A stretch of 64,000 bases of DNA from IMG/VR virus record IMGVR_UViG_3300037541_000632, positions 1 to 64,000 of that record. One strand, written 5' to 3'. Of the stretch, positions 5,455-35,716 are shown piece after piece. A program made the translations under genes and the position numbers. How positions within the stretch are numbered: position 1 is the stretch's first letter; each line of letters opens with the position of its first letter. This DNA comes from a virus. The notes under the pieces were generated by a model. That model searched no databases. It had not been told where the DNA came from and saw only the letters and a program-made list of their open reading frames with translations.

Positions 5455-5455
5455 T

Positions 5456-16671: not shown

Positions 16672-16712
16672 AAAATAATATCCGGACGCTGCATCGCTGC
16701 AGCGCCCGGATA
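16672..16712 (-). terminator. intrinsic terminator
   Basis: TCCGGGCGCTGCA/TGCAGCGTCCGGA hairpin followed by a T-rich tail on the - strand. Confidence 0.65.
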
Positions 16713-16724
16713 TATCTGTCAGTA

Positions 16725-19498: not shown

Positions 19499-19523
19499 TG
19501 TGCTTTTAATTTTGGTGTGTGGT

Positions 19524-20632: not shown

Positions 20633-20831
20633 TGTCTTTGTCTATTTGTTCGATTGCGCGTTTCAAGTAAATAGCCTTATCAAGAGTTTCCTCGTAGGCA
20701 TGCTGCAACCACTGTTTTAAAGACAAATCATTGTCTCTCACAGTGCTATTATATTTTTTAATACCCATTTGTTGTCTGCGAGAAATATCTGCACAAACAT
20801 CCGCCTCAGTACCAATAACATTTATTTCCAT
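20571..20831 (-). CDS. conserved phage helical protein
   Basis: R...GIKKY...WLQHAYEE.LD.AIYL motif; likely start MEIN. Confidence 0.7.
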   Translation of the reverse strand: MEINVIGTEADVCADISRRQQMGIKKYNSTVRDNDLSLKQWLQHAYEETLDKAIYLKRAIEQIDKDNGISFSYHQSQASGSESKSS

Positions 20832-21264: not shown

Positions 21265-21436
21265 CTTTTGTAGATTGTTCTAGCTCATTCCATTTTCTGC
21301 GTTCCGGGTAAACCTTGGACCAGATTATTTCGGCCATAAGTTCCAGGTCTTGAATATCAGTAAGGGTGGTTTCACAACACTCACGATCTGTACAATCATA
21401 AGGTGTCGGACAATTTTGGCATGTGATAAAAAACAT
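21212..21436 (-). CDS. small Cys-rich protein
   Basis: CQNCPTPYDC...CC. Confidence 0.55.
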   Translation of the reverse strand: MFFITCQNCPTPYDCTDRECCETTLTDIQDLELMAEIIWSKVYPERRKWNELEQSTKDEWIRYTKVARTVILCL

Positions 21437-21638
21437 TATGTGTTAAGGTTATCCTCAAAAAACTTATCCTCAAAAAATCATTTACATTATAAAATGTGCG
21501 TCTGAAAGTATGGTTCCAAATATGCGCGCGGAAACCAATATCACACAGAGAATTAATGCGTTTATTAAATTCTAAATGACAGCACGCATTATGCACGTCG
21601 CTCATTAATCTGTCATATACATGGGCTTCAAGTGTCAT
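21396..21638 (-). CDS. degenerate terminal member of SVxx array 1
   Basis: Starts MTLE at the same 11-nt junction but the repeat is eroded. Confidence 0.55.
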   Translation of the reverse strand: MTLEAHVYDRLMSDVHNACCHLEFNKRINSLCDIGFRAHIWNHTFRRTFYNVNDFLRISFLRITLTHNVFYHMPKLSDTL

Positions 21639-21831
21639 ATGATTCAATTAGTTTATCAATTTTGTTGTAAACATCTCTGCAAAAAGAATAACGAAAATAA
21701 TGCTGAACAGAGTCATCAACAGAATCAATAACAGAATTACGAACAGATTGCCGAGCAGAATTAAAAACAGAATTTAAAACAGAATTCCAAACAGAATCAT
21801 AAACATTATAAACAGAAGCTTCAAGTGTCAT
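21628..21831 (-). CDS. SVxx-repeat protein (array 1 unit 11)
   Basis: MTLE...SYDT; 11-nt overlap. Confidence 0.7.
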   Translation of the reverse strand: MTLEASVYNVYDSVWNSVLNSVFNSARQSVRNSVIDSVDDSVQHYFRYSFCRDVYNKIDKLIESYDT

Positions 21832-22039
21832 ATGATTTCATTAGATCTTTGATTGAATTATATACAGAATTATAAACAGAATCCCAAACAGGCTTACAAA
21901 CAGAATTACAAACAGAACTACGAACAGAATTATGAAAAGAATTATGAAAAGAATTAAAAACATAATTATCAACATAATTCCAAACATAATTATCAACATA
22001 ATTACAAACAGAATCACAAACAGATTCTCTAAGTGTCAT
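21821..22039 (-). CDS. SVxx-repeat protein (array 1 unit 10)
   Basis: MTLR...KSYDT. Confidence 0.7.
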   Translation of the reverse strand: MTLRESVCDSVCNYVDNYVWNYVDNYVFNSFHNSFHNSVRSSVCNSVCKPVWDSVYNSVYNSIKDLMKSYDT

Positions 22040-22247
22040 CGGATTTAATTAGGTTATAGACAGAATCACAAACAGAATTATAAACAGAGTCTTTAATAGA
22101 ATCCCAAACAGAATGACGAACATAATCCCAAACAGAATTATAAACAGAATAATAAACAGAATTATAAACAGAATCCCAAACAGAATTATAAACAGAATCA
22201 CGAACAGAATTATAAACAGAATCACGAACAGAATCTTTAAGTGTCAT
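22029..22247 (-). CDS. SVxx-repeat protein (array 1 unit 9)
   Basis: MTLK...KSDDT. Confidence 0.7.
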   Translation of the reverse strand: MTLKDSVRDSVYNSVRDSVYNSVWDSVYNSVYYSVYNSVWDYVRHSVWDSIKDSVYNSVCDSVYNLIKSDDT

Positions 22248-22467
22248 GAGATTTAATTAGGTTACAGACAGAATCCCAAACAGAATCCCAAACAGAATGA
22301 CGAACAGAATTCCAAACAGAATACTGAACAGAATTATTAACAGAATTCCAAACAGAATAATAAACAGAATACTGAACAGAATTATCAACAGAATTCCAAC
22401 CAGAATTATGAACAGAATTATCAACAGAGTCACGAACAGAATTATAAACAGAATATTCAAGTGTCAT
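22237..22467 (-). CDS. SVxx-repeat protein (array 1 unit 8)
   Basis: MTLE...KSHDT. Confidence 0.7.
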   Translation of the reverse strand: MTLEYSVYNSVRDSVDNSVHNSGWNSVDNSVQYSVYYSVWNSVNNSVQYSVWNSVRHSVWDSVWDSVCNLIKSHDT

Positions 22468-22651
22468 GTGATTTAATTAAGGTGTGAATTGAATTATAAA
22501 CAGAATCTTCAACAGAATCCCAAACAGAATCCCGAACAGAATTAAAAACAGAATCATAAATAGAATCATAAATAGAATCATAAACAGAATCCCAAACAGA
22601 ATTAAAAACAGAATTCCAAACAGAATTATAAACAGAATCTTTAAGTGTCAT
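22457..22651 (-). CDS. SVxx-repeat protein (array 1 unit 7)
   Basis: MTLK...KSHDT. Confidence 0.7.
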   Translation of the reverse strand: MTLKDSVYNSVWNSVFNSVWDSVYDSIYDSIYDSVFNSVRDSVWDSVEDSVYNSIHTLIKSHDT

Positions 22652-22883
22652 ATGATTTCACTAGGTCTTTGACTGAATTATATACAGAATCCCAAACAGA
22701 ATCCCAAACAGAAATATCAACAGAATCCCGAACAGAATTATAAACAGAATCCCAAACAGAATCCCAAACAGAATTATAAACAGAATCCCAAACAGAATTA
22801 TCAACAGAATCAAGAACAGAATCCCAAACAGAATTACGAACAGAACTATGAACAAAATTATAAACAGAATCTTTAAGTGTCAT
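22641..22883 (-). CDS. SVxx-repeat protein (array 1 unit 6)
   Basis: MTLK...KSYDT. Confidence 0.7.
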   Translation of the reverse strand: MTLKDSVYNFVHSSVRNSVWDSVLDSVDNSVWDSVYNSVWDSVWDSVYNSVRDSVDISVWDSVWDSVYNSVKDLVKSYDT

Positions 22884-23091
22884 GAGATTTAATTAGATCT
22901 TTAATTGAGCTATAAACAGAATCCCAAACAGAAATATCAACAGAATCCCGAACAGAATTATAAACAGAATCCCAAACAGAATTATAAACAGAATCCCAAA
23001 CAGAATTATCAACAGAATCAAGAACAGAATCCCAAACAGAATTACGAACAGAATTACGAACAGAATTATAAACAGAATCTTTAAGTGTCAT
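22873..23091 (-). CDS. SVxx-repeat protein (array 1 unit 5)
   Basis: MTLK...KSHDT. Confidence 0.7.
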   Translation of the reverse strand: MTLKDSVYNSVRNSVRNSVWDSVLDSVDNSVWDSVYNSVWDSVYNSVRDSVDISVWDSVYSSIKDLIKSHDT

Positions 23092-23299
23092 GTGATTTAA
23101 TTAGGTTGGTAATTAAATTATAAACAGAAACGCGAACAGAGTTATTAACAGAATCAGAAACAGAGTTATAAACGGAATCAACAACAGAATCAACAACAGA
23201 ACCACGAACAGATTTATGAACAGAGTGCCGAGTAGAATTTAAAACAGAATTCCAAACAGAATTCCAAACAGAATTATAAACAGCGTGGTCAAGTGTCAT
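23081..23299 (-). CDS. SVxx-repeat protein (array 1 unit 4)
   Basis: MTLD...KSHDT. Confidence 0.7.
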   Translation of the reverse strand: MTLDHAVYNSVWNSVWNSVLNSTRHSVHKSVRGSVVDSVVDSVYNSVSDSVNNSVRVSVYNLITNLIKSHDT

Positions 23300-23471
23300 A
23301 TGATTTCACTAGGTCTTTGATTGAATTATATACAGAATCCCAAACAGAATCCCAAACAGAATTATAAACAGAATCCCAAACAGAATTATCAACAGAATCA
23401 AGAACAGAATCCCAAACAGAATTACGAACAGAATTACGAACAGAATTATAAACAGAATCTTTAAGTGTCAT
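23289..23471 (-). CDS. SVxx-repeat protein (array 1 unit 3)
   Basis: MTLK...KSYDT. Confidence 0.7.
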   Translation of the reverse strand: MTLKDSVYNSVRNSVRNSVWDSVLDSVDNSVWDSVYNSVWDSVWDSVYNSIKDLVKSYDT

Positions 23472-23667
23472 GTGATTTAATTAGATCTTTAATTGAGCTA
23501 TAAACAGAATCATGAACAGAAATCCGAACAGAGTCACGAACAGAATTATGAACAGAAACACAAACAGAATCCCAAACAGAATTATGAACAGAATTATGAA
23601 CAGAATTCCAAGCAGAACTATGAACAGGCTTACGAACAGAATAATAAACAGAATATTCAAGTGTCAT
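23461..23667 (-). CDS. SVxx-repeat protein (array 1 unit 2)
   Basis: MTLE...KSHDT. Confidence 0.7.
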   Translation of the reverse strand: MTLEYSVYYSVRKPVHSSAWNSVHNSVHNSVWDSVCVSVHNSVRDSVRISVHDSVYSSIKDLIKSHDT

Positions 23668-23875
23668 ATGATTTCACTAGGTCTTTGATTGAATTCCAAA
23701 CAGAATACTGAACAGAATTCCAAACAGAATTATTAACAGAATTCCAAACAGAATTCCAAACAGAATAATAAACAGAATCCCAAACAGAATTATCAACAGA
23801 ATCAAGAACAGAATCCCAAACAGAATTACGAACAGAATTACGAACAGAATTATAAACAGAATCTTTAAGTGTCAT
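23657..23875 (-). CDS. SVxx-repeat protein (array 1 unit 1)
   Basis: MTLK...KSYDT; ATGA overlap with the upstream gene. Confidence 0.7.
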   Translation of the reverse strand: MTLKDSVYNSVRNSVRNSVWDSVLDSVDNSVWDSVYYSVWNSVWNSVNNSVWNSVQYSVWNSIKDLVKSYDT

Positions 23876-24444
23876 GCGCTTATCCAGTCAGGTTTATTCT
23901 GTATCCACTTATGTAAGTGCTGTTTACCTGCTATGTAAAAATTACGATAGGCCTGCACCGAGTCTTCGCATTTAAATTCATCAGGCATCGCCTGCGCAAA
24001 TTCCGTTATAGATCCTTCAGGTACAAGACTATGCTGTAAATTTAGTTGAACCCAATTAATAAAAGGAATGCAGAAATGCTGTGCGGGCGCGCTATTAACA
24101 ATATCCGGGGCGTGAGGCTTACCTTCCTCTTTTAATTTAAGCAGCTCTTGTGCTTTCAGCCTATAACGCTGAATTCTTTCTGTATCCATGGCAAATGCAT
24201 GTGCAATTAACCACCTCATATTCTCCCGGGATACGCGGACCCATTTACTGCAGGGATGGTTGTAATGCGCGTATTTACGCACTGTACCTGCCTGAGTCCT
24301 AGGACAAGTCTCGTCAGCCAACTGCTCCGGTGAAAAGCAGTTGGCTAACATCTGAGCAGATTCCAATACCATTTTCACGACATGGGAATCTACAAGGTGT
24401 CTCGCCGACTTGACGGGGCACCTGTAAATTGCGAAGATATTCAT
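23872..24444 (-). CDS. pyrimidine-dimer DNA glycosylase-like protein
   Basis: MNIF...HVVKM.LESAQML...HYNHPCSKW...QAMPD...AYR.FY family pattern. Confidence 0.75.
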   Translation of the reverse strand: MNIFAIYRCPVKSARHLVDSHVVKMVLESAQMLANCFSPEQLADETCPRTQAGTVRKYAHYNHPCSKWVRVSRENMRWLIAHAFAMDTERIQRYRLKAQELLKLKEEGKPHAPDIVNSAPAQHFCIPFINWVQLNLQHSLVPEGSITEFAQAMPDEFKCEDSVQAYRNFYIAGKQHLHKWIQNKPDWISA

Positions 24445-24707
24445 TTAGCAAATTCTTTTGCCTTATCCCACTTTAACCAGACTCGAGGTCTTTCATCCTC
24501 GATATAATCAGAGAAATCATTTAAATCTCTCTCATCCTGCACATAGGCAGCGGCTTGAAATAAACCGTTGTCTACAACACAGACAAGGTTCTCTTCCCAT
24601 TCTTTGGGAGCGTCTGGAAGCAATATAGCTCCAGCTTTAATTAAATCTTCATCCTTATCAAGATATTTCAGCGGACCTGAAGGTGTGTGATTGATATACT
24701 TACCCAT
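24441..24707 (-). CDS. conserved phage hypothetical protein
   Basis: VCVVDNGLF.AA...D.RP..W motif. Confidence 0.7.
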   Translation of the reverse strand: MGKYINHTPSGPLKYLDKDEDLIKAGAILLPDAPKEWEENLVCVVDNGLFQAAAYVQDERDLNDFSDYIEDERPRVWLKWDKAKEFAK

Positions 24708-24713
24708 ACAATA

Positions 24714-25406
24714 CTATATAACACTAATACCCACATCTGTTGCATTGACTGATTCACCGGTATCTGGAGTAGACACCGCCTCTTCCTTATTACCTTTAGC
24801 CCTTGAAGGCTTCACTTCACCTTTACGCTCCCAAGCATTTCTACAGTAAAGTATAACATGTTTTGGTTGTAAGATTTCAGGAGGTTCTACAATAGTACTT
24901 GTGTAGCCGTGCGCGTACTTAACAGTTTTAACTTTTCCGGCGTTAGAATTTTTTACACTTATAGGTAAAAGTCTACGCCCACAAATTCTAAAAGAACGAG
25001 ATTTAGGGAAAATCTGATTCTCATGCATATCAATAGTAAAATAAACCTGCCCTCTTACAAAGTTACGTTGCCTTCCCAGCACATTAAATGCACAAGAAAT
25101 TCTATTATTTTCGCTTACCATAGTTATATTTAATACACCTCCGTAACTAACAGCGGCGTGATTAATTTTTACTTTTAACAATTTCATGAAGAAGTAATCC
25201 ATAGTTTTTGGATTATCCTCATTAAGGATCATTGTAGCGATTTCTCGAGCGGTGAAGTTTCTTGCAAACATTGAACTTTTTATTTGTTCTATTCCTTGGG
25301 ATATATACAAACTAATGTTATTTATATAAATTTTAGAAACATTTTCTTTTACTAATCCAAATTTATTTAAAATATAAGAAGATAATTTGGCACTGTTAAA
25401 TGTCAT
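24714..25406 (-). CDS. hypothetical protein
   Basis: 230 aa ORF. Confidence 0.65.
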   Translation of the reverse strand: MTFNSAKLSSYILNKFGLVKENVSKIYINNISLYISQGIEQIKSSMFARNFTAREIATMILNEDNPKTMDYFFMKLLKVKINHAAVSYGGVLNITMVSENNRISCAFNVLGRQRNFVRGQVYFTIDMHENQIFPKSRSFRICGRRLLPISVKNSNAGKVKTVKYAHGYTSTIVEPPEILQPKHVILYCRNAWERKGEVKPSRAKGNKEEAVSTPDTGESVNATDVGISVI

Positions 25407-25411
25407 GCTTT

Positions 25412-25786
25412 TTAGGATTTATAATCAATAGACTCTATAAGATTATAAAAAGGAACTAACTTTACACTGTAACCAGCATCTAATAGCTTATTAAACATTT
25501 CTTCTGCAGCTAAGACATTATGCGAATGCACTACTATTTTATTAATTGATTTAGTGCGTGGCTGCTCGCAAAGATAACGCACAACCTCCATACCGCAGTC
25601 TTCCCGGGAAGAGTTGACGTAAGCCTCGCCTCCTAAATCATGGTCCAGGAATAACCAGTCAATATTTATGCTATCCTTTATTAGTTTAATACACTGTTCC
25701 GCAGTCTCAGCACGAACAGCTTGTGGTATCTTGGATTGGAATTTATACCACCGTTGATGGTCATCATCTAAAAAAATAATTCTCAT
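25412..25786 (-). CDS. cyclic-phosphate-processing receiver-like domain protein
   Basis: FLDDD, LDHDLG and VHSHN motifs. Confidence 0.75.
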   Translation of the reverse strand: MRIIFLDDDHQRWYKFQSKIPQAVRAETAEQCIKLIKDSINIDWLFLDHDLGGEAYVNSSREDCGMEVVRYLCEQPRTKSINKIVVHSHNVLAAEEMFNKLLDAGYSVKLVPFYNLIESIDYKS

Positions 25787-26367
25787 AGTTTAAAAGCAAC
25801 TTTCTGTAACCAGTTATTAAATTTTTCTAACTTATAATGAATGGATAACAATACTTTACTAATAGCACGCGCTACCTTACCCCGAAAGGTTTTATAGTAA
25901 GCAGCGTCCGCTTCCATGATTTTCATTATCTCATTATTGCGCTCAATCCTAGGAGTCGGATCTTTTTCTTCGTATTCAATGCATTCCATACTAACTAGAA
26001 CACCATTCACTAATTTAACTTTTAGCTCAATTGAAATATCGATGGTGTCGCTATTGTAATAATCATATAGACAAATTGTATCAGTAATTAATTCAGGATT
26101 ACAGCTTCTAGCTGTTTCATTAAAATGAAAACCGAAGATTTCATTTGGGTTTTCATTTTTAACAAACTCTCCTTCCACCTCGTCTTTATGAAACATATAC
26201 GCACCATCCACATTTTTAAAATGGTAGGTTTGTAGTGCGTTATATAAATCTTTTGTTTGAAAGTCAGTGACTTCGTGCTTGAGTAAACTCGCATATTTTT
26301 GAATGCATGTGTCCTCCTGAGCTTTCAGAAGTTCAACTGGAACATGGACTGTGTCGTACATTCCCAT
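25783..26367 (-). CDS. conserved phage hypothetical protein
   Basis: MGMYD...FQTKDL motif. Confidence 0.7.
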   Translation of the reverse strand: MGMYDTVHVPVELLKAQEDTCIQKYASLLKHEVTDFQTKDLYNALQTYHFKNVDGAYMFHKDEVEGEFVKNENPNEIFGFHFNETARSCNPELITDTICLYDYYNSDTIDISIELKVKLVNGVLVSMECIEYEEKDPTPRIERNNEIMKIMEADAAYYKTFRGKVARAISKVLLSIHYKLEKFNNWLQKVAFKL

Positions 26368-26371
26368 AATT

Positions 26372-26830
26372 TTATGCTTCTATTTGTTCTGGTAAGTTAA
26401 GGATTTTCATGAAGGATTCATAAGCCATATGTCTGACTTTATCCTTCACACATGAGAAACCTTCACGCGCATCGATGTCATACTCCAATGCAGTGTACAG
26501 CAGAGGCAACATTTTGAGCATGTAATAAACACGGTTACTCATAACATAATTATCTCTGGACCTATCCATAAGACCTTTCTCTTCCAGAATATCTATAGTA
26601 TTTAATAATACTTCAGTCATTTGATGATTTGCCTCATCCAGGATTCCTCTCAATCCTTTATGACTTGCTTCAAACATTTTAGAATAAGCATCGCTCTTTT
26701 TACTTTCCTCTTTTGCCTGAGTACAAAGAGCATCAATAACTGAAGCAATATCCTGCTCAGTAATTTTAGAAACAGTAGCTACTGCTTCATTTAAGAATTC
26801 TTGTCTTGTTTTTGGGATTTCAGTTTCCAT
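26372..26830 (-). CDS. hypothetical protein
   Basis: ORF; likely start METE. Confidence 0.65.
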   Translation of the reverse strand: METEIPKTRQEFLNEAVATVSKITEQDIASVIDALCTQAKEESKKSDAYSKMFEASHKGLRGILDEANHQMTEVLLNTIDILEEKGLMDRSRDNYVMSNRVYYMLKMLPLLYTALEYDIDAREGFSCVKDKVRHMAYESFMKILNLPEQIEA

Positions 26831-26834
26831 GCTG

Positions 26835-27056
26835 TTATTGGTATGCGCTACCGGGCTGTCCTGGTTCATTGCTGTTTGTGCAGGCGAGGCTGTGGTCAGT
26901 AACATGCGGGCAGCGTTTATTACCGCATGTGCTACACACTACCATCCACCACGCGTGTGGATTACATTTTCTACAACTACAATCCGGATTTGGTATTACC
27001 TTATCCGGATTGAGCTTGTAATAAAAAGGATCGCTTTCTTTTAGCTGTTCACTCAT
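26835..27056 (-). CDS. small zinc-finger-like protein
   Basis: CSCRKC...CSTCGNKRCPH...CTNSNEPGQ.GS motif. Confidence 0.7.
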   Translation of the reverse strand: MSEQLKESDPFYYKLNPDKVIPNPDCSCRKCNPHAWWMVVCSTCGNKRCPHVTDHSLACTNSNEPGQPGSAYQ

Positions 27057-27297
27057 CTATTTCAGATATTGTATATTGATCTGCAGCCCAACAAATATAA
27101 GGAGCGCGTCCCGTATGTCTGAAGGCAGTTAAATCATCAGCATCATCAGCATTCCATTCCTTAACATCTTTAGTGACGTTAGTAATAGAATTAGTGAAAC
27201 GGACAATCTTACCTCTAGCTAAAATGTCTTCAATAAGCTGCCGCCTGCTTTTTAGGTCAGGCGACAGATCCCGTTCTGGAACAAGTCTTGCGCTCAT
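27049..27297 (-). CDS. hypothetical protein
   Basis: Tiling ORF. Confidence 0.55.
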   Translation of the reverse strand: MSARLVPERDLSPDLKSRRQLIEDILARGKIVRFTNSITNVTKDVKEWNADDADDLTAFRHTGRAPYICWAADQYTISEIDE

Positions 27298-27719
27298 TAT
27301 ACTAAATATTTATCTTTAAATTCGGTTACTTCATCTTTCAGCTTATGCCAGTAAGTGGTTGACTCAACCATCCAGCATTGCTCATCAGGAAATGTAGCTA
27401 GCTGTTGAGCCGCATGATGCAAAGAAAAAAGACATGCACAAAGCGCAAGGTTCTTAGCAGCATCCCGCAGTGTTTTAAACTTAATGTCCATACCTAAACT
27501 TATGTCTTCTGGGATAGCGGGTATATTGACATGAATCGAGTATGTAGACTCACAAAATTCAATACTACAACTAATTCCTCTTTTGATAGTAATTCTATAC
27601 TCATCATCTCTGCCCAGACCATTTAAAGTTCTGGCAAATATGACAGTGGCTTTTTGTAAAAACTCTTCGTCACTCAAACTTGAATTATCTTCAATTATTT
27701 TATCTTTCATATTCTTCAT
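27297..27719 (-). CDS. hypothetical protein
   Basis: Tiling ORF; likely start MKNM. Confidence 0.6.
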   Translation of the reverse strand: MKNMKDKIIEDNSSLSDEEFLQKATVIFARTLNGLGRDDEYRITIKRGISCSIEFCESTYSIHVNIPAIPEDISLGMDIKFKTLRDAAKNLALCACLFSLHHAAQQLATFPDEQCWMVESTTYWHKLKDEVTEFKDKYLV

Positions 27720-28197
27720 GCTTAACTGATACAATATATTTTCTACCAAGACAATTGTGTATAATGTATTTGCTTTTATTAATTGTAGTCCCGTTTATAA
27801 GAGATATACCTGTTGAGTCAGGTAATTCTACTCTTTCATATAACACATAATCAAGCTTCCTTCCATTCCAGGCAGATTTATAGGGTCTTTTACCCCACAC
27901 TAAATCAGCCCGTTTGCAGTATCTACAAGTTACCAAAGCTGAGTTAGCGCTGCATTTGTTTAGAGCAGATTTTACTCGTGCATTCCAAGAACGTATATAA
28001 TTATTTAAAGACGCTCTTCTTTTTGTGATGCTCTCGTCTATCACTGGATGCCCATAAGATATAGGATGAATGTATTGACCATTACAACCGCACGTTTTAT
28101 AAAAAGTAGATGGAAATTCGTCGGAAGGCCAAGGTGAAAATGTAGGCAATTTATTACAACGCCAACACGGTAAAATTTCTAATTCTTTAGGTTTCAT
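27700..28197 (-). CDS. zinc-ribbon protein (Lar-like N-terminus)
   Basis: LPCWRC...WNAR and a second CRYC. Confidence 0.55.
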   Translation of the reverse strand: MKPKELEILPCWRCNKLPTFSPWPSDEFPSTFYKTCGCNGQYIHPISYGHPVIDESITKRRASLNNYIRSWNARVKSALNKCSANSALVTCRYCKRADLVWGKRPYKSAWNGRKLDYVLYERVELPDSTGISLINGTTINKSKYIIHNCLGRKYIVSVKHEEYER

Positions 28198-28200
28198 AAA

Positions 28201-28482
28201 TTAATCTTTTATTTTATCTAAAAGATACTCAGCCAGTTCTTTAGCTTTATCTTTATCTATAATTACTTGATCACCATATGGGCTGTCTTTTGTGAGGATA
28301 CGCCATATCCAGCGAAGCTTAGTTTTCCAGCTGGGTTTACTGCTAGCCTGAAGAGTCCATATAGAAACATCAAAATGCTCGAATTCATGATAATAGTCCA
28401 AGCGAATAAATTCACTGTGACAATCACACTTAATAAACTTCTCGTTAGATTTTATAGGAGGGTCCTGAGTCATAATTACCAA
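28201..28482 (-). CDS. hypothetical protein
   Basis: KCDCHSE motif; start uncertain. Confidence 0.6.
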   Translation of the reverse strand: MVIMTQDPPIKSNEKFIKCDCHSEFIRLDYYHEFEHFDVSIWTLQASSKPSWKTKLRWIWRILTKDSPYGDQVIIDKDKAKELAEYLLDKIKD

Positions 28483-28847
28483 CGTTGAGGGTTATATTGG
28501 TTAGCGTATCTCTGCTTATTAATAGCTTTGAATTTTTCAGGAGATACTCCTGAAGCAACACAAGCCGTAAGTAATGGCAGTCCTTTATTATAAATTTCCA
28601 AAGCTCTATTGATCTGCTGGTCTGTAGGATGTTTACTAAACAACCGGGAATAGGCTTTGCAAGTATCTAAATCGCAAGCAACTGCTGCGTCATGTATACT
28701 TAATCCTTTAATTAGGATAAGGTTCGAGAGAATATTTTTCTCAGCTACGGCCTGCGAAAAACAATCTGTTTTAGGTTTCTTTGCATAAATAACTCTTTTT
28801 CTTTTACTTCTAACTCTTGTCTTTGGTTTTGTAGTTGTCTCAGTCAT
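28476..28847 (-). CDS. putative HTH DNA-binding protein
   Basis: Basic N-terminus and two G.S...A....G-like HTH segments. Confidence 0.5.
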   Translation of the reverse strand: MTETTTKPKTRVRSKRKRVIYAKKPKTDCFSQAVAEKNILSNLILIKGLSIHDAAVACDLDTCKAYSRLFSKHPTDQQINRALEIYNKGLPLLTACVASGVSPEKFKAINKQRYANQYNPQRW

Positions 28848-28874
28848 GATTTGTTTTGTTTTGAATTTGTTTTA

Positions 28875-29018
28875 TTAACCGAACGGATTAAAATTTCTAG
28901 CCCAGTAAAGCAGAGCCAGAAATACAATTACAGCTACGGAGAATACTCCGCTAAAATAACCACCCCAAAAGGTTCCATTAAGGAGCCAGTCCGGGATCTC
29001 GAGTGTTAATGCTAACAT
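28875..29018 (-). CDS. small membrane protein (47 aa, not in ORF track)
   Basis: MLALTLEIPDWLLNGTFWGGYFSGVFSVAVIVFLALLYW... Confidence 0.5.
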   Translation of the reverse strand: MLALTLEIPDWLLNGTFWGGYFSGVFSVAVIVFLALLYWARNFNPFG

Positions 29019-29019
29019 A

Positions 29020-29457
29020 TTAGTGTTTTAATAGTTCAGGGTTCTCAAAGATATTGCCAATGATTTCTGCTTCTCCAAGCCACAATGCATGTTCTCCGTG
29101 TGTAAATGCCGCATACTCTTCTGAGTACGAGATTGCTTCAGTGACTTCTTGATCCACATATTTGCAGGTAAGAATGTCACCTTCATAAATGTCATTACCG
29201 TTTTTATCTTTTAGTCCAGTGTATTGCTGGATGACGTATCTTGGTTCTTTGACGAATTTTGTTCCTTCAAGATAATAATCAGCAGCAGGAGAAGCAGTAA
29301 AAGATTCTTCATGATCACCATTAAATGTTCCAACATAATCAACAAGGTTGCCTGTGAATGGGCAAATTGTCCAATTGCTGTAGCAATGAAGACTGCTGCT
29401 GTTTTCTATCCAATTTTTATATTGTTTATCCCAAATGCGGAATTTTAGTTCTCTCAT
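29020..29457 (-). CDS. YopX family protein
   Basis: MRELKFRIWDK, QYTGLKDKNG.DIYEGDI and IIGNIFENPELL motifs. Confidence 0.9.
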   Translation of the reverse strand: MRELKFRIWDKQYKNWIENSSSLHCYSNWTICPFTGNLVDYVGTFNGDHEESFTASPAADYYLEGTKFVKEPRYVIQQYTGLKDKNGNDIYEGDILTCKYVDQEVTEAISYSEEYAAFTHGEHALWLGEAEIIGNIFENPELLKH

Positions 29458-29633
29458 TTATTTTGTGTAGTTAATACAAATATAACTTTATTAGTTACAG
29501 GGTTGATAGCCCATTCATGACTTAATACTTTCTTACCTTTGATTTTAAAACCTTTGACGTAGTAATCAATGACTTTAGCTAAATCTACTGCTACAGTCAT
29601 TTCATCGTATTCTTTATCTGGAGGATCGAACAT
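29454..29633 (-). CDS. hypothetical protein (59 aa, not in ORF track)
   Basis: Fills a gap; ATGA overlap with the YopX gene. Confidence 0.45.
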   Translation of the reverse strand: MFDPPDKEYDEMTVAVDLAKVIDYYVKGFKIKGKKVLSHEWAINPVTNKVIFVLTTQNK

Positions 29634-29674
29634 AGGTTTTTATTTCAATGATGAAGGACTCTAGGTCGTTAGTG

Positions 29675-30022
29675 TCACTCATATAGTTTCAGTTGATGTA
29701 GTTTTATTTCTTTTTCAACAAGCTTGTAAGTAGGTAAATCCTCAAGGATAGGGTACCCATCATTATCTTCACCTGCCTCCTCCTGATCGTGTTGTCTGCT
29801 GTTAAAATAAAAACTACCAAACCCATACTTAATAGTTTGGTTATCCTCCTTGTGGAGCAAAGCCCAAGTATAAGGGCCATTGTATATTATAATACTATCA
29901 CGCTCTAAGCGCACTCTGCTAATCTCAAAACAGTAACCTTCATATTGAAGTACTGTGGCAGTAAATAGGAATGTAATGAATTCATCCCATCCTATTTCTT
30001 TCTCAATCATTTTATGACTCAT
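29675..30022 (-). CDS. hypothetical protein
   Basis: Likely start MSHK, 1 nt after the upstream stop. Confidence 0.6.
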   Translation of the reverse strand: MSHKMIEKEIGWDEFITFLFTATVLQYEGYCFEISRVRLERDSIIIYNGPYTWALLHKEDNQTIKYGFGSFYFNSRQHDQEEAGEDNDGYPILEDLPTYKLVEKEIKLHQLKLYE

Positions 30023-30502
30023 GTCAGTATGGTATTTTTTTAAGCCATGCGCGGGCAGCTTCTTGTGCTGCGATCCACTTTTGCCGTGCATCCATCATTA
30101 CTTTATGTGTACAGTAAGCGTCCATTTCTTCGCGCGCAGTTTCCTCGTCGCCCCATTCTCGCTCAACTTCTCGGCGTATAGCCATGAGATCATGCGGGTA
30201 TGGATTTGCTAATAAATCAGCCACGATTTTAGCAGCTGACACTTCAACTACGGCAGGAGTATCCTCCTCTGGATCATCAACTGATCTATGGTAGCTACCC
30301 CAAAGAAAGATGGGTAGAAAAATAAGTGAACTAACCAACAAACCATGCCAGCCAGTAGCTGCAGTAAAAGCTATCATAAAAATAATAATTATACCAAGTC
30401 CCGGGTGAGTTCCGAATGTAGGTAAGTCGCAGAATGAACCTCTATACAAATGATAGAATAAGGTTTTTATTTTTTGAATCATGTCAGTATGGTATTTTTT
30501 TA
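30019..30502. repeat. 24-nt direct repeat at two gene junctions (30019-30042, 30479-30502)
   Basis: TCATGTCAGTATGGTATTTTTTTA occurs twice. Confidence 0.85.
30024..30482 (-). CDS. membrane protein
   Basis: Two hydrophobic segments near the N-terminus. Confidence 0.65.
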   Translation of the reverse strand: MIQKIKTLFYHLYRGSFCDLPTFGTHPGLGIIIIFMIAFTAATGWHGLLVSSLIFLPIFLWGSYHRSVDDPEEDTPAVVEVSAAKIVADLLANPYPHDLMAIRREVEREWGDEETAREEMDAYCTHKVMMDARQKWIAAQEAARAWLKKIPY

Positions 30503-30936
30503 GCTCTCAGCCAGCATATAGCTCTGGCAATTGCAGTATTGGAACATTTGTTCACACCCTGTAATGGAAGGAAGTGATCATACTCTTTCATCTCATCAGA
30601 GGTTAAAGTCTGCTCCGCATCATTCATGGCATTTAAGTTACCAGAGAAATTGGGAGGCCTGGCAGTTATCTTGCCTGAAGGACTAAACCAATGACTGCAT
30701 GGAATGTAATTAGCTTTCACCTCAGCAACTTCCTGCGTTGGTGTTTCATCAATATCCAATTTGATATACGCCACATTAGCAGGAGCATCCTTTATTACCT
30801 TTCGGACATAATTATTAAATCTGGTGTCCATGAGCCTAAGTCCTTTGACCCATGGATCCCCAAATTGCCAGGGTCTATACCCCATGGTTCTAGCTATCGC
30901 TTCATTAATCTTTCTGTTGTAGTAATCAACGTGCAT
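30484..30936 (-). CDS. phage ABA-sandwich-like protein
   Basis: INEAIA..MG...PNFSGNLNAM..AE pattern. Confidence 0.55.
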   Translation of the reverse strand: MHVDYYNRKINEAIARTMGYRPWQFGDPWVKGLRLMDTRFNNYVRKVIKDAPANVAYIKLDIDETPTQEVAEVKANYIPCSHWFSPSGKITARPPNFSGNLNAMNDAEQTLTSDEMKEYDHFLPLQGVNKCSNTAIARAICWLRAKKIPY

Positions 30937-31132
30937 AAAGCCGGGGAAGGGAATCACCTTCTAGTGATATTGTTAAACGCCACAAGTTAATAAAATAATA
31001 TGTTTTACAGTCATAGTCTATACTCCCTAAACTAAATGTGCCTTTTTTGTGTAGACACCAATCTATATGGAATTGAGTCGTAACTAATATTACCCTGTTT
31101 AAACAAGATAATATAAATTTAATCCTTTTCAT
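30926..31132 (-). CDS. hypothetical protein
   Basis: Tiling ORF. Confidence 0.45.
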   Translation of the reverse strand: MKRIKFILSCLNRVILVTTQFHIDWCLHKKGTFSLGSIDYDCKTYYFINLWRLTISLEGDSLPRLYAR

Positions 31133-31427
31133 ATTTATTTACTTTATCTACCATGCGCGCGTGCATGGCTTCAGCGTCTTTCCATCCACCAGAGCAGCGA
31201 TCTTGCTCATGATGAAGTTCTCCTCCAAAGACCATGGTCTCCCAAAGAACAGGAGGCCCATCACCAAAGCTATGGTCCAGTCCAAGGAATACTGTGGAGA
31301 CTTCCACACCATCAATCTTGTCAAAGGCAACACGACGCTTACTGATCGCAGCCATCCATGTTCCCCATTTAAGTAAATCAGGTTCTACTACGGGATTTTT
31401 GTTTTCGTCTAGAATGTATTTATTCAT
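31119..31427 (-). CDS. conserved phage hypothetical protein
   Basis: VSTVFLGLDH.F...PP.LWETMVFGG motif. Confidence 0.75.
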   Translation of the reverse strand: MNKYILDENKNPVVEPDLLKWGTWMAAISKRRVAFDKIDGVEVSTVFLGLDHSFGDGPPVLWETMVFGGELHHEQDRCSGGWKDAEAMHARMVDKVNKYEKD

Positions 31428-31671
31428 AATTATTTACTTTGGTTTTAAGCTTATTGTTAATAATGCTCTTCACCGATTTGTAGGCAGAATTATCAACAGA
31501 ATCCCAAACAGAATCCCAAACAGAGTCTTTAATAGAATCCCAAACAGAATTATAAACAGAATGACGAACAGAATCCCAAACAGAATACAAAACAGAATTA
31601 CGAAAAGAATCCAGAACAGAATTCCAAACAGAATTATCAACAGAGTCACGAACAGAATCTTCAAATGTCAT
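31420..31671 (-). CDS. SVxx-repeat protein (array 2 unit 8)
   Basis: MTFE...; divergent C-terminus. Confidence 0.7.
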   Translation of the reverse strand: MTFEDSVRDSVDNSVWNSVLDSFRNSVLYSVWDSVRHSVYNSVWDSIKDSVWDSVWDSVDNSAYKSVKSIINNKLKTKVNNYE

Positions 31672-31867
31672 ATGCTTTTATTAGTGTGTTAATTGAATTA
31701 TCAACAGAGTAACAAACGGGCTTACAAACAGGCTTACAAACAGAGTTAAGAACAGAAGACCAAACAGAATTATAAACAGAATCACGAACAGAATACAAAG
31801 CAGAAGACCAAACAGAATTATAAACAGAATCACGAACAAAATCCCGAACAGAATCTTCAAGTGTCAT
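31661..31867 (-). CDS. SVxx-repeat protein (array 2 unit 7)
   Basis: MTLE...KAYDI. Confidence 0.7.
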   Translation of the reverse strand: MTLEDSVRDFVRDSVYNSVWSSALYSVRDSVYNSVWSSVLNSVCKPVCKPVCYSVDNSINTLIKAYDI

Positions 31868-32087
31868 ATGCTTTTATTAGGTTGGTAATTGAATTATAAA
31901 CAGAATCTTCAACAGAATCATAAATAGAATTCCAAACAGAATTACGAACAGAATCCCAAACAGAAATATCAACAGAATAATAAACAGAATAATAAACAGA
32001 ATTATAAACAGAATCCCAAACAGAATTATAAACAGAATCACGAACAGAATCCCAAACAGAATCCCGAACAGAATCTTCAAGTGTCAT
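31857..32087 (-). CDS. SVxx-repeat protein (array 2 unit 6)
   Basis: MTLE...KAYDT. Confidence 0.7.
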   Translation of the reverse strand: MTLEDSVRDSVWDSVRDSVYNSVWDSVYNSVYYSVYYSVDISVWDSVRNSVWNSIYDSVEDSVYNSITNLIKAYDT

Positions 32088-32271
32088 ATGCTTTTATTAG
32101 GTTGGTAATTGAATTATAAACAGAATCCCAAACAGAATCCCGAACAGAATTATAAACAGAATGACGAACAGAATCCCAAACAGAATCCCGAACAGAATTA
32201 TCAACAGAATCCCAAACAGAATTATAAACAGAATAACAAACAGAATACAAAGCAGAATGCTCAAGTGTCAT
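32077..32271 (-). CDS. SVxx-repeat protein (array 2 unit 5)
   Basis: MTLE...KAYDT. Confidence 0.7.
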   Translation of the reverse strand: MTLEHSALYSVCYSVYNSVWDSVDNSVRDSVWDSVRHSVYNSVRDSVWDSVYNSITNLIKAYDT

Positions 32272-32467
32272 ATGATTTCATTAGATCTTTGATTGAATTA
32301 TATACAGAATCCCAAACAGAATTATCAACAGAATCCCAAACAGAATGACGAACAGAATCCCAAACAGAATCCCGAACAGAATTATCAACAGAATCCCAAA
32401 CAGAATTATAAACAGAAGTACAAAAAGAGGCACGAACAAAATAATAAACAGATTCTTCAAGTGTCAT
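32261..32467 (-). CDS. SVxx-repeat protein (array 2 unit 4)
   Basis: MTLE...KSYDT. Confidence 0.7.
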   Translation of the reverse strand: MTLEESVYYFVRASFCTSVYNSVWDSVDNSVRDSVWDSVRHSVWDSVDNSVWDSVYNSIKDLMKSYDT

Positions 32468-32567
32468 ATGCTTTTATTAGATTGGTGATTGAGTTATAAA
32501 CAGAATCTTCAACAGAGTCCCAAACAGAATTATTAACAGAAATACGAACAGAATCTTCAAGTGTCAT
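32457..32567 (-). CDS. SVxx-repeat protein (array 2 unit 3, 36 aa, not in ORF track)
   Basis: MTLEDSVRISVNNSVWDSVEDSVYNSITNLIKAYDT. Confidence 0.7.
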   Translation of the reverse strand: MTLEDSVRISVNNSVWDSVEDSVYNSITNLIKAYDT

Positions 32568-32763
32568 ATGCTTTTATTAGGTTATACACAGAATTATAAA
32601 CAGAATTATAAACAGAAACACGAACAGAATTACCAACAGAACGCCAAACAGAAATATTAACAGAATTACTAACAGAATCCCAAACAGAATTATCAACAGA
32701 ATTCCGAACAGAATTACGAACAGAATCCCAAACAGAATTCCAAACATATTCTTCAAGTTTCAT
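32557..32763 (-). CDS. SVxx-repeat protein (array 2 unit 2)
   Basis: MKLE...KAYDT. Confidence 0.7.
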   Translation of the reverse strand: MKLEEYVWNSVWDSVRNSVRNSVDNSVWDSVSNSVNISVWRSVGNSVRVSVYNSVYNSVYNLIKAYDT

Positions 32764-32971
32764 AGGATTTTATTAGATTGGTGATTGAATTATATACAGA
32801 ATTATAAACAGAAACACGAACAGAATTACCAACAGAACGCCAAACAGAAATATTAACAGAATAATAAACAGAACTTTGAACAGGATTACTAACAGAATCA
32901 TTAACAGAATCAAGAACAGAATTACAAACAGAATTAAGAACAGGATCCCAAACAGAAGCTTTAAGTGTCAT
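32753..32971 (-). CDS. SVxx-repeat protein (array 2 unit 1)
   Basis: MTLK...KSYET; start moved to the conserved ATGACACTTAA. Confidence 0.7.
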   Translation of the reverse strand: MTLKASVWDPVLNSVCNSVLDSVNDSVSNPVQSSVYYSVNISVWRSVGNSVRVSVYNSVYNSITNLIKSYET

Positions 32972-32988
32972 ATGATTGTGCAAAGCTA

Positions 32989-33621
32989 TCAATAATACCG
33001 GGTGTGTTGGCCGATGCGTACACCTGCTTTTTTAAATATATTTTTAGTGTTTTTCATGTCAGTAAAGTAGTCAAGTGGTTGCAGTACAGTAGGTAATTGT
33101 TGTTCAAGTATAGTGTCACACACGCCTGTAAAACCATTATTCCAGTCTCGCCTAATACGGGTCCAAGAATAGAATAATAGATTGTTATTAGCGCAACGAG
33201 ATATAGCCGCAATATCCAATGGTAGGTTATGCGTCAAAGCCATACTCAATGCCATAGTTTCGGCATCATGCTCAAGCGCCAGTGTGTTTCTAAACGCTAA
33301 TTCTATCTCTGGTTTAGAAAGAACAATAGATCTGTTCAACCAGTTAATATATTTATACGTACCTTCCTTATGCAAATAATGCCATAATTCAGTCTTATCT
33401 CTGTGCTGAATGAAATGGGCATACTCGTGCAAAAATGTATATACACTAAATGATCCCTGTCCCATAGCCACAGTCAGTGAATTACGCGCAGCATCAAATG
33501 TCCCAGAGTATTTATTATTAATTACTCTCTTATTAGTTAAATGAACACTGATTCCATGTTGAATCAGTTCTTGTACTTTGGAGCCTATGAATTCGAGGCA
33601 CCTAGAGGGAATGGTATCCAT
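32989..33621 (-). CDS. HExxH zinc metallopeptidase-like protein
   Basis: FLHEYAH...LEHDAE. Confidence 0.65.
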   Translation of the reverse strand: MDTIPSRCLEFIGSKVQELIQHGISVHLTNKRVINNKYSGTFDAARNSLTVAMGQGSFSVYTFLHEYAHFIQHRDKTELWHYLHKEGTYKYINWLNRSIVLSKPEIELAFRNTLALEHDAETMALSMALTHNLPLDIAAISRCANNNLLFYSWTRIRRDWNNGFTGVCDTILEQQLPTVLQPLDYFTDMKNTKNIFKKAGVRIGQHTRYY

Positions 33622-34100
33622 CTTTCTAAAATAGCGGAAAAGCTATCGAACATATATTCAATTTCCCGATTACCATCAATACTTGCCCATGGAGCAGGTA
33701 AAGCATCGACAGCGCCAACCAATTTAGTTTGGTCTGCATATGTATGAGGCTTGCGCTCCTTACATACACTTAACGAAGTGTTTACATAAACAAATTTAGT
33801 GTCAGGCAATAACTGCAGTACTTCATTCCTTTGCTCTTGGAATGGCGCACAAGCAGCAACTATTACAGCAATACCCAAGTCCTTGTAAGTCTTAGCCAGC
33901 CGGGTAATGCGACGAGTATTTTCTAATCTCGCATCTTTAGACAATCCAATCTCAGGCCAGTAATTATTTCTTAATTCATCCGCATCCAGCACTATGAATG
34001 TAATATGCCATGGCGCAATTAACTGCTGTGCATATCTGGTAATTGTAGTTTTGCCACTTCCAGATAATCCGTACAACCAAAGCACTGAATGCATATGCAT
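33585..34100 (-). CDS. cysC: adenylylsulfate kinase
   Basis: WLYGLSGSGKTT, LDADELR, GLSKDAR.EN..R and VYVNTSL.VC.ER motifs. Confidence 0.85.
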   Translation of the reverse strand: MHMHSVLWLYGLSGSGKTTITRYAQQLIAPWHITFIVLDADELRNNYWPEIGLSKDARLENTRRITRLAKTYKDLGIAVIVAACAPFQEQRNEVLQLLPDTKFVYVNTSLSVCKERKPHTYADQTKLVGAVDALPAPWASIDGNREIEYMFDSFSAILERWIPFPLGASNS

Positions 34101-35716
34101 TATAATTTATAACCAAAGGTCGTGTACATAAATTGTTCACACCGTTTAATAGTCTCCCGGGATTCCATGGATATGGCATTACGATCATAGGTCTGACTAT
34201 TAGTGTGCGCAGGATCTAATTTAAGTTTACCTGAAATTAAATCCTTCATCACATTAACTTTATATGGTTGTCCAATTACATTTAAAAGGTTACGCAGGTC
34301 ACTAAACATATGCTCAGTGCGTCCAATTAATTCCACTTTATTATTGGTAGGAAAATTTGAATCCTTTCCCAGGTACCTACGAACTAATGTTGTGTAATGC
34401 CCAAGCCAGAACTGCCCATAATCCTTTAACCATTCATCAAATGAAGTAGTGGCGAGTTCAGCTGCTGAGAATCTAGAATGCGCAGTATTCATATTCCAGT
34501 GATAGAATGACATCCACCAAGCTACAGGATGACGAACAAAACTAAAGAATGGCTTACCATTCTCAGGCATCTGCGATGCAAATAAATGACCATAATGCGG
34601 CGTCTTAATTACCTGTGATTTGTCAGTAATCGCTCCTAATAGCCAAAGCGCAGTATTTAAAGTAGTACCACCACATTTAGGAATGTGAATGAAGTTACAA
34701 TGAGAGAGTAAATAGTTGGACATAGTATTAATTAAATCTGGGGGAGGTTGGGGGTTGGTGCTATTGCTATAGCTAATTAAATCTGGGTGAAACTGTCGGA
34801 TGAAATCTATTTTCTTAGCGGCATCACATGCATGCCCTGCAAAATGAACAATAGAATAACTCAGCTTATATTGATTTACGATATCTGCTCTAGCCCATAA
34901 ATGCACAGATACGAATTTAACATAGCTAGCTAATAAATGCACATTGGAAATACAGAACCAATTAAAGTAATGATTCAAGAATGCCTGCTCAAAGAAGTAT
35001 TCACCGGGCCAAGCTCTGGATAACCAATCCACATTATATAAATGCCGAAGCATCCGCACACTATTCACGAATAAATACTGACCAGCATTAAATGCATATA
35101 TTTCCTTATCCCGGAACTCATTCATTTTAGCTAAATCATAATCCACCAAATTATGAAACTTGGTATTATGCAAATGATCTGAATAAGAATGAATAGCCGA
35201 ATAAAATATATCTGGATCTAATTCCAAATTAAACAATTCACTAATCGGCTCCTTAGCCATAATATCCACATCCAAGAATAATACCTTTCCATAATCATTA
35301 ATATTCTTGAACTGATATATCTTCAATTTATTCATTGAAGCCTCAACACCATCCTTAGCCTCAGGCACAGAATGAAACAGTAAATTAAATCCTTTTAAAT
35401 CAATTACTCCATCACCAATCAATTTATTAATTTTAGTTTCAAACAAAGGAGAACATATAACCAATAAATCAAATGCATCATTTTTATCTTTATTAACAAT
35501 AGATCTTAAACAATACGTAAATAAATCAATATATGACTCACTATAATTAATAGTGAAGTAAATCAAGTTTTTCTTTCCCAGCGGTACATTACTGGAATTA
35601 AATGTATCCCTATACCGGGAATTTAATTCCTCCAGCAAATTATCCTCTGCATATAATCTTCCTTCGTTTTTACGCATTAATGCTGACGCGGGAACTGCTG
35701 GGTTTGTATTAATCAT
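34100..35716 (-). CDS. GT8-like glycosyltransferase fused to a sulfotransferase
   Basis: N-terminal KL...FLDVD...FNAG...EQAFLN...HFAG; C-terminal FIHIPKCGGTT (5'-PSB loop) and FVRHP..W..S (3'-PB). Confidence 0.8.
   Translation of the reverse strand: MINTNPAVPASALMRKNEGRLYAEDNLLEELNSRYRDTFNSSNVPLGKKNLIYFTINYSESYIDLFTYCLRSIVNKDKNDAFDLLVICSPLFETKINKLIGDGVIDLKGFNLLFHSVPEAKDGVEASMNKLKIYQFKNINDYGKVLFLDVDIMAKEPISELFNLELDPDIFYSAIHSYSDHLHNTKFHNLVDYDLAKMNEFRDKEIYAFNAGQYLFVNSVRMLRHLYNVDWLSRAWPGEYFFEQAFLNHYFNWFCISNVHLLASYVKFVSVHLWARADIVNQYKLSYSIVHFAGHACDAAKKIDFIRQFHPDLISYSNSTNPQPPPDLINTMSNYLLSHCNFIHIPKCGGTTLNTALWLLGAITDKSQVIKTPHYGHLFASQMPENGKPFFSFVRHPVAWWMSFYHWNMNTAHSRFSAAELATTSFDEWLKDYGQFWLGHYTTLVRRYLGKDSNFPTNNKVELIGRTEHMFSDLRNLLNVIGQPYKVNVMKDLISGKLKLDPAHTNSQTYDRNAISMESRETIKRCEQFMYTTFGYKL

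Follow-up and report, generated by a model that had tools for sequence, protein, structure and literature searches.

Two arrays of predicted single-helix mini-genes with evidence of sequence exchange in a large uncultured phage

The stretch of DNA analyzed here, a window of 64,000 nt, comes from a large uncultured phage and carries two arrays of very short genes. The arrays lie on the same strand, 7.5 kb apart, and share one unit design, in which an N-terminal Met-Thr-Leu is followed by a variable number of tetrads of the form x1-x2-Ser-Val and a C-terminal cap; the caps that flank the repeat measure 3–12 residues. Inspection of the open reading frames and their translations resolves array 2 (31420–32971, minus strand, as are all features of the window given below) into a chain of eight mini-genes of 36–83 codons for amino acids. 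At a junction common to both arrays, the stop codon of one unit overlaps the ATG of the next by 11 nt, which shifts each successive unit by +1 in frame. A preliminary description of this region had reported eight units with the repeat and the junction of array 1, and both points stand: all eight are present, and the 11-nt overlap is identical in the two arrays. Its total of 20 units becomes 19 canonical units (11 plus 8) and one degenerate ORF in array 1. All 19 canonical units are intact, start with ATG, and keep a single tetrad register from start codon to stop.

The first unit of array 2, B01 (72 aa, 32753–32971), starts 17 nt past the stop codon of a 210-aa gene (32989–33621) that provides a synteny anchor to the related locus L001. 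B01 and B02 (68 aa, 32557–32763) have an exact 67-nt block in common, in keeping with the long blocks noted earlier in these adjacent units. B03 (32457–32567), reported at the outset as a minimal 36-aa unit, is real and intact and comprises an N cap, five body tetrads, and a C cap; L001 has a still shorter unit of 28 aa. There follow B04 (68 aa, 32261–32467), B05 (64 aa, 32077–32271), B06 (76 aa, 31857–32087), and B07 (68 aa, 31661–31867). The last unit, B08 (83 aa, 31420–31671), has a divergent Lys/Asn-rich tail, and its end is overlapped over 8 nt by the ATG (31427) of the next gene. KAYDT ends predominate as first described, with four KAYDT and one KAYDI among the eight units; B04 ends in KSYDT, B01 in KSYET, and B08 in its own tail.

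Array 1 contains eleven canonical units, A01–A11 (21628–23875), the first of which is joined via an ATGA to the upstream gene for a pyrimidine-dimer-glycosylase-like protein (phrog_624, 23872–24444), a synteny anchor to the related loci L002, L139, and L140. A degenerate twelfth unit (21396–21638) has the junction and four initial tetrads, beyond which the repeat is lost. The window also encodes an AAA ATPase (phrog_2376, 18395–19537), directly upstream of a 345-aa homolog of DUF6745 (17309–18346). This pair is kept in L002, as are the two small genes (113 and 56 aa, 16725–17223) that end the DUF6745 operon. The first strong hairpin downstream of both arrays that resembles an intrinsic terminator, with 16 pairs and a T run, lies at 16678–16713.

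Within the tetrad, Ser-Val is constant, x2 is mostly Asn or Asp, and x1 is hypervariable (Trp, Tyr, Arg, Asp, and others), with an entropy of 1.3–1.7 bits at each of its three codon positions. An AF2 model of B06 shows one 73-residue helix spanning residues 3–75 (pLDDT 86), and the 4.0-residue period is not that of a classical coiled coil. Array 2 is predicted to be a set of real, translationally coupled mini-genes, each encoding one long amphipathic α-helix of 36–83 residues. Searches with the units yield no meaningful match in Pfam, PHROGs, or PADLOC, and a unit profile has no match to PDB sequences at E < 0.1. Among phage records, none matched positions 31000–34000 by megablast or one unit by tblastn with the low-complexity filter on. 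The ESM Atlas holds at least 30 clusters of similar viral proteins of 65–78 aa.

The coding of the tetrad invites a different reading. Its Ser codons are 94% TCT and its Val codons 96% GTT, compared to 30% and 40% genome-wide, and several frames are open on both strands. Such nearly invariant silent sites could mark a repeat that acts as a DNA or RNA element, or a neutral 12-nt minisatellite, with the ORFs as a by-product of a stop-free repeat. We reject this reading as highly improbable. The fixed codons change among lineages (TCT GTT in the window, TCT GTC in L002, mainly TCA GTT in L142, and TCG GTG in tracts in cis), whereas Ser-Val does not, and the ATG, caps, register, and stop are kept in 19 of 19 canonical units. 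The diverged array of L002 retains the protein periodicity only: at the array-2 site, at least six mini-ORFs are hydrophobic at 74–89% of every-fourth positions and contain no DNA repeat. The tract also lies in frame inside hundreds of two-domain proteins, and Tweety gp54, which is translated, is reported with the same silent-site pattern (PMC2884959). We give still less credence to the idea that the true products are small membrane peptides read from TTG starts in an overlapping hydrophobic frame of the Ile-Leu-Phe-Gly type. Most units do contain ORFs of 55–67 aa in that frame, but their only starts are TTG or GTG within the junction, the Ser-Val frame is fixed by homologs, and the character of the alternative frame shifts in L002 with the change of Val codon; this reading, too, is rejected.

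The unit repeat has its match in the inter-domain tract of DUF6745 (PF20530, phrog_31813) and related phage and prophage proteins, such as P0033 and P0064, with which the units share the x-x-Ser-Val tetrad and the preferred x1 and x2 residues. HMMER retrieves 316 longer proteins with the tract in frame at E ≤ 1e-3 (best 5e-38), scores that overstate homology on a low-complexity repeat; PF20530 is present in about 70 of the best 120 of these proteins. The tract is recovered in 4,342 representative clusters by a profile search. In DUF6745 the tract is internal to the protein and 6–60 tetrads long, whereas here it is spread over about 20 separate genes, each of which has its own start, caps, and stop. 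The units are pure tract and give no hit to the PF20530 model, whose coverage is confined to the C domain after the tract (residues 218–437 in P0033, for example).

The DUF6745 homolog of the window carries no tract. It scores 25.3 bits against PF20530 (gathering cut-off 27, E 1.1e-5), and hhalign aligns it with bona fide DUF6745 members over its full length, including the N and C domains (probability 100%, E 1.8e-40, 295 columns), leaving gaps at the tract positions; about 20 residues occupy the site where relatives have 6–60 tetrads. Arrays occur within 10 kb at 0 of 73 tract-bearing DUF6745 loci and are found at four of seven tract-less loci (the window, L002, L142, and L145), a contrast that overstates independence because the loci are phylogenetically related. 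The other three tract-less loci have no array within the DNA examined. In L002, L142, and L145, the arrays adjoin or flank the DUF6745 operon. An AF2 model of the tract-bearing P0064 shows confident N and C domains and a tract with pLDDT below 50, so that no cis geometry of the tract can be read from it. The DUF6745 homolog has no match to PDB sequences at E < 0.1. Structural comparison by Foldseek against the PDB (best E 1.5) and by VIA-align wide (best Z 4.2, mostly single-helix matches) gives no functional lead, and a literature search found no paper on DUF6745.

Comparison of the units reveals mosaics that cross between the arrays. In B06, the first 117 nt are ~95% identical to A09 and include an exact stretch of 71 nt, and the last 51 nt match B05 without a difference. 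B04 shares 80 nt exactly with B05 in the body, and its 50-nt C cap (32261–32310) is an exact copy of that of A10 (21821–21870), which bears out the KSYDT-type end described earlier as common to 21821–22039 and 32261–32467. The rare CKPV word, likewise reported from both arrays, is one identical DNA 12-mer in A10 and B07, and B08 and A09 have two consecutive rare words in common. The longest inter-array run of identical 12-mers consists of five words, lies within the 71-nt exact match, and has P = 0.003 when words are shuffled within units. Fourteen of 24 rare 12-mers occur in both arrays (15.2 ± 2.2 expected under free mixing). For 13.8 of the 19 units the nearest neighbor belongs to the same array, versus 9.2 expected (P = 0.03), an excess that indicates that within-array exchange dominates. 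These sequence comparisons support the view that arrays 1 and 2 have swapped sequence. The preliminary description had gone further and proposed ongoing inter-array gene conversion, to be abandoned if units clustered strictly by array and shared rare 12-mers no more than by chance. Clustering proves partial, and rare words are shared as in free mixing; exchange is upheld by the B06 and B04 mosaics and the common pool of rare words, but "ongoing" is more than a single assembly can bear. Two metagenome contigs carrying the junction contain no variant in which 23872–31427 is deleted or amplified.

Shared ancestry alone might also leave common blocks, as relics of one array that was split or duplicated with no later exchange. 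The partial clustering by array would fit such a history, as would the array-specific ends (KAYDT confined to array 2, KSHDT to array 1) and the mere 3 of 88 inter-array pairs with at least 40 nt in common. We nevertheless reject it as improbable, since L002, with flanks ~72% identical, already has arrays at both sites, and these are dissimilar to each other. From this comparison, the two-site layout is older than the split from L002, and because the two L002 sites differ, the identical caps and junctions of both arrays here must be younger than the layout itself. Turnover is moreover fast: at 92% flank identity, one of five L140 units has a clear counterpart here. Despite this turnover, the two arrays hold 71-nt and 50-nt exact tracts, an identical junction, and one pool of rare words, and the order of the common tracts is not collinear.

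Related loci extend the case for exchange to other lineages. The body of A04 matches an L140 unit at 191 of 192 nt (145 nt exact), next to a flanking gene that is 92.4% identical, and in both A04 and its counterpart the C cap has been converted to the local type of each genome. One further L140 unit has 42 nt in common with A11. Two-site synteny is seen in L001 and L002. A first junction pattern gave no matches in viral contigs, a looser one gave the L001 contig and chance matches and nothing else, and a locus search by the AAA ATPase alone returned no relatives.

Tweety gp54 is the nearest studied analog of the units, by analogy of build and not by membership. The gene for this mycobacteriophage protein is non-essential and contains a 12-nt repeat that encodes four residues, two of them constant and two variable; third codon positions are invariant, and first and second positions vary. 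Repeat number differs from one close phage to the next (PMC2884959). Che8 gp57 and PMC gp51 are grouped with Tweety gp54. Alterations in the gp54 repeat number modulate escape from the Phrann gp29/gp30 defense (PMC9262239). The units resemble gp54 in their 12-nt tetrapeptide repeat, their constant and variable residues, and the nearly invariant silent sites of their Ser and Val codons. The gp54 repeat, however, is of the Ala-Ala-x-x type and sits within one protein between unique N and C domains, whereas the units consist of repeat and short caps without flanking domains, and gp54 forms no free-standing gene arrays. No sequence relation is seen between gp54 and the unit profile (hhalign probability 0.1%), and gp54 matches no Pfam family. 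As cited in the same source, the VR2 repeat of bbp36 in the Bordetella phage BMP-1 is a tandem in-frame repeat of a non-essential gene, with 9–20 copies among isolates (PMC2884959); its repeat unit of 24 bp lies inside one gene, unlike the arrays. Diversity-generating retroelements (DGRs) likewise focus amino-acid hypervariability on defined positions of a phage protein scaffold, but diversity here arises from many gene copies and recombination. We rejected a DGR as unlikely: an RVT_1 search of the 101-kb record, which is 56% complete, found no reverse transcriptase, there is no template/variable repeat pair, and the variation is not adenine-specific.

Taken together, these observations lead us to propose that the mini-genes encode stand-alone copies of the tetrapeptide tract found between the N and C domains of many phage and prophage proteins, mainly DUF6745, and that the phage's own DUF6745 protein has lost its tract. 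The arrays would change through 12-nt slippage, unequal crossing-over, and gene conversion, mostly within one array, but also across the 7.5 kb that separate the two and from one related phage lineage to another. Such processes would homogenize the caps and the Ser and Val silent sites while x1 diversifies. The ~20 helices may then serve as alternative, exchangeable modules that differ in length and surface and that, by analogy with Tweety gp54, act with or replace the missing tract of a DUF6745/AAA-ATPase module in phage–host conflict. We regard this account as a whole, from coupled helix mini-genes through tract copies and inter-array exchange to the role in host conflict, as somewhat probable. 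Supply of the tract in trans by the mini-proteins is suggested by co-occurrence.

Alternatively, the mini-proteins could act independently of DUF6745, as self-assembling rods or as decoys or inhibitors of host defense or other host proteins, with common descent of the repeat as the sole link. We hold this to be unlikely. In its favor, DUF6745 is not the sole host of the tract, which is also part of another architecture whose N domain is DUF7666-like; three of the seven tract-less loci have no array in view; 13 kb separate array 2 from the DUF6745 gene; the ESM Atlas clusters contain proteins of unit size; and Trp, Tyr, and Arg, residues typical of binding surfaces, are frequent at x1. Against it, arrays are seen solely with tract-less DUF6745, at none of the 73 tract-bearing loci, and they abut or flank the DUF6745 operon in L002, L142, and L145. 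The proposed role with DUF6745 can also be taken further, to a split combinatorial system in which a single conserved DUF6745/AAA-ATPase core would take up in trans any one of ~20 interchangeable helical modules, unlike in length and surface, as a means of keeping up with host defenses, while words and caps would pass from one array to the other and entire cassettes would move between this phage and its relatives. We offer this stronger version as a doubtful speculation; if true, the locus would be a recombination-driven diversity library, functionally like a DGR or an antigenic-variation locus.

Proteins with tetrapeptide tracts are very common in phages, as the 4,342 representative clusters attest, and Tweety gp54 is their sole studied analog. 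At the locus described here, the tract takes a different genetic form: two arrays made up of many helix genes that stand alone and are translationally coupled. The locus offers measurable evidence of concerted evolution within and between arrays, of diversifying change at one tetrad position, and of cassette exchange between phage lineages, and the accessory genes between the arrays could be gained or lost through its direct repeats, which lie 7.5 kb from each other. The distribution of DUF6745 loci, with the tract in cis or arrays in trans, yields a testable hypothesis on this protein family.

The window derives from a large, cyanophage-like, uncultured phage, as judged from a transketolase-like gene that shares 68% identity with its Prochlorococcus phage P-TIM68 counterpart. 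The window covers the first 64 kb of a virus record of 101,264 bp, which CheckV rates as 56% complete, and the minus strand carries nearly all of its genes. ORF listing and a junction scan define two arrays of mini-genes: array 1 at 21396-23875 (-), with 11 canonical units (A01–A11) and one degenerate unit, and array 2 at 31420-32971 (-), with eight units (B01–B08). The preliminary description had placed eight units at exactly these array 2 coordinates and had counted among them a 36-aa unit at 32457-32567, which is indeed present. No third array was found across the full record. All units follow the same order of MTL, n tetrads of x1-x2-Ser-Val, a C cap in tetrad register, and a stop, with a one-codon slip in A11 only. 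An 11-nt overlap joins the stop of each unit to the next ATG, and the reading frame therefore advances by +1 from one unit to the next. ATGA couples the first array 1 unit to the gene upstream, and the last unit of array 2 overlaps the gene that follows by 8 nt. No strong terminator was found between array 2 and a hairpin at 16678-16713 that closes the DUF6745 operon, making a single long transcription unit across this interval plausible.

Because the 12-nt repeat lacks stops, it leaves multiple frames open. Four results establish the Ser-Val frame as the real protein-coding one. First, identical tetrads occur in frame with unrelated globular domains, in short and long homologues. Second, Ser-Val is kept across related phage contigs though the fixed codons change: TCT GTT in the window, L001, L139, and L140, TCT GTC in L002, mostly TCA GTT in L142, and TCG GTG in tracts in cis; the tetrads of L145 are of a Gln-Val type (CAA GTC). 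Third, the array 2 site of L002 holds ~10 mini-ORFs of 67-142 aa without a DNA repeat; in at least six of them, 74-89% of every-fourth positions are hydrophobic, and in five of these six the hydropathy autocorrelation peaks at lags 4 and 8. Fourth, all 19 canonical units are intact though the repeat is slippage-prone. AF2 modeled B06 from a 30-sequence alignment as one continuous helix (residues 3-75, mean pLDDT 86).

Across 257 tetrads, Ser is encoded by TCT in 94% (30% genome-wide) and Val by GTT in 96% (40% genome-wide), while each of the three positions of the x1 codon has an entropy of 1.3-1.7 bits. The x1 residues include Trp (62), Tyr (55), Arg (43), and Asp (19), and Asn or Asp fills x2 in 76% of tetrads. 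The mycobacteriophage protein Tweety gp54, which contains a 12-nt tetrapeptide repeat, likewise has frozen silent sites beside a hypervariable codon, from which Pham et al. inferred selection for variation (PMC2884959). Taken with the lineage-specific fixed codons, the frozen silent sites beside a hypervariable codon in the window amount to concerted evolution with x1 diversification.

The claim of ongoing exchange between the two arrays holds in part. The longest exact inter-array matches span 71 nt (A09/B06), 50 nt (A10/B04), and 45 nt (A05/B06). The first 117 nt of B06 match A09 and its last 51 nt match B05, while in B04 an 80-nt stretch corresponds to B05 and the C cap to A10; both units are mosaics. 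Between the arrays, at most five consecutive 12-mer words are identical (P = 0.003 for the maximum under within-unit word shuffling), although the count of runs of at least three words is not unusual under the same shuffling. Rare words (2-5 copies) mix, 14 of 24 being common to both arrays against 15.2 ± 2.2 under free mixing. Against full mixing, units cluster partly by array: the nearest neighbor lies in the same array for 13.8 of 19 units (9.2 expected, P = 0.03), and certain cap variants are confined to one array. The suggestion that recombination could delete or amplify 23872-31427 is mechanistically reasonable because the arrays share exact identities of 50-71 nt in direct orientation; neither variant was found in the two metagenome contigs having the junction.

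Comparison with related phages orders these events. L002, a 121-kb contig with flanks ~72% identical to the window, is syntenic with it from 14 to 35 kb. Its array 1 site carries 11 units with caps quite different from those of the window, followed directly by genes for a 142-aa protein, an AAA ATPase, and DUF6745. The two-site layout is old because L002 has units at the array 1 site and the diverged mini-ORFs at the array 2 site, and the window's arrays were homogenized later, given their common caps, junction, and long exact tracts. FMKSYDT-type caps occur both at the array 2 site of L001 (flank 81% identical) and at the array 1 site of L139 (flank 81% at the amino acid level), which is suggestive of homogenization in a second lineage, the two contigs perhaps being separate genomes. 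The first array 2-site unit in L001 (10630-10860) and in the related proteins P0008 and P0026 bears a ~40-aa non-repeat N-terminal extension that B01 lacks; L001 also has a 28-aa unit at 11046-11132.

L140 also carries the array 1 boundary, where the flanking gene shares 92.4% DNA identity with the window's. Among its five units, one (L140 431-649) is the counterpart of A04 (window 23081-23299), with 191 of 192 body positions identical and a 145-nt exact run, where flank divergence predicts ~15 differences. Of the seven positions at which the two units differ, six lie in the last 27 nt, where the L140 unit bears the cap type of all L140 units. Another L140 unit, u4, is identical to A11 over 42 nt, and the rest have no counterpart in the window. 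The comparison indicates rapid turnover, conversion of the C cap to the local type of each genome, and probably cassette transfer between lineages of co-circulating phages.

Just downstream of array 1, perfect direct repeats of 166 nt (19981-20146 = 20628-20793) and 109 nt (19861-19969 = 20141-20249) yield four small minus-strand ORFs with N- or C-terminal modules in common; L002 has its single 142-aa gene here. Between the arrays, 25412-25786 (-) encodes a cREC_REC receiver domain (PF20274, cyclic-phosphate processing, E 3e-19) that L002 also has, with 70% identity. Directly upstream of array 2, at 33585-35716 (-), an APS kinase (PF01583, E 1.6e-25) adjoins a 538-aa protein that weakly resembles glycosyltransferase family 8 (PF01501, E 5e-5) and a sulfotransferase (PF03567, E 0.008); the counterpart of the 538-aa gene is broken into two ORFs in L001, which also has a methyltransferase-like ORF inserted ahead of the kinase.

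The units are kin to an inter-domain repeat tract of larger proteins. A unit profile matches 4,342 representative clusters, and B06 as query retrieves 316 longer proteins at E ≤ 1e-3, of which ~70 of the best 120 contain DUF6745 (PF20530). The tract also occurs in a second architecture, ~300 aa long, whose N domain is DUF7666-like. The window encodes its own DUF6745 homologue at 17309-18346 (-), adjoining an AAA ATPase gene; its alignment with members that carry the tract runs from end to end (hhalign probability 100%, E 1.8e-40), with ~20 residues in the tract's place. C-domain patterns retrieved 80 viral loci, in 73 of which the DUF6745 gene contains 6-60 tetrads; none of these 73 has at least two free-standing mini-genes within 10 kb. 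Arrays do lie near four of the seven tract-less relatives (window, L002, L142, and L145), and none shows in the DNA retrieved for L141, L144, and L146. This contrast between cis tract and trans array (0/73 versus 4/7) is strong, but the loci are not phylogenetically independent. In L142, where the tract-less DUF6745 shares 43% identity with that of the window, Ser-Val arrays with a distinct cap type lie on either side of the gene (5368-6177 and 11411-13101), and the Gln-Val array of L145 lies directly 3′ of its DUF6745 gene.

The literature searched yielded no paper on DUF6745, PDB sequence searches with the homologue and unit profile found no solved relative, and structure comparison gave no fold match as a lead; structure prediction modeled the tract in cis at low confidence only. 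By build, the nearest studied analogue of the units is Tweety gp54, though unrelated in sequence, in which repeat gain and loss tunes escape from Phrann gp29/gp30 (PMC9262239). We hold the structural and evolutionary description of the arrays with high confidence. Far more tentatively, the arrays may provide a library of helices, varied in length and surface, that would work with or replace the tract missing from DUF6745/AAA in phage–host conflict.
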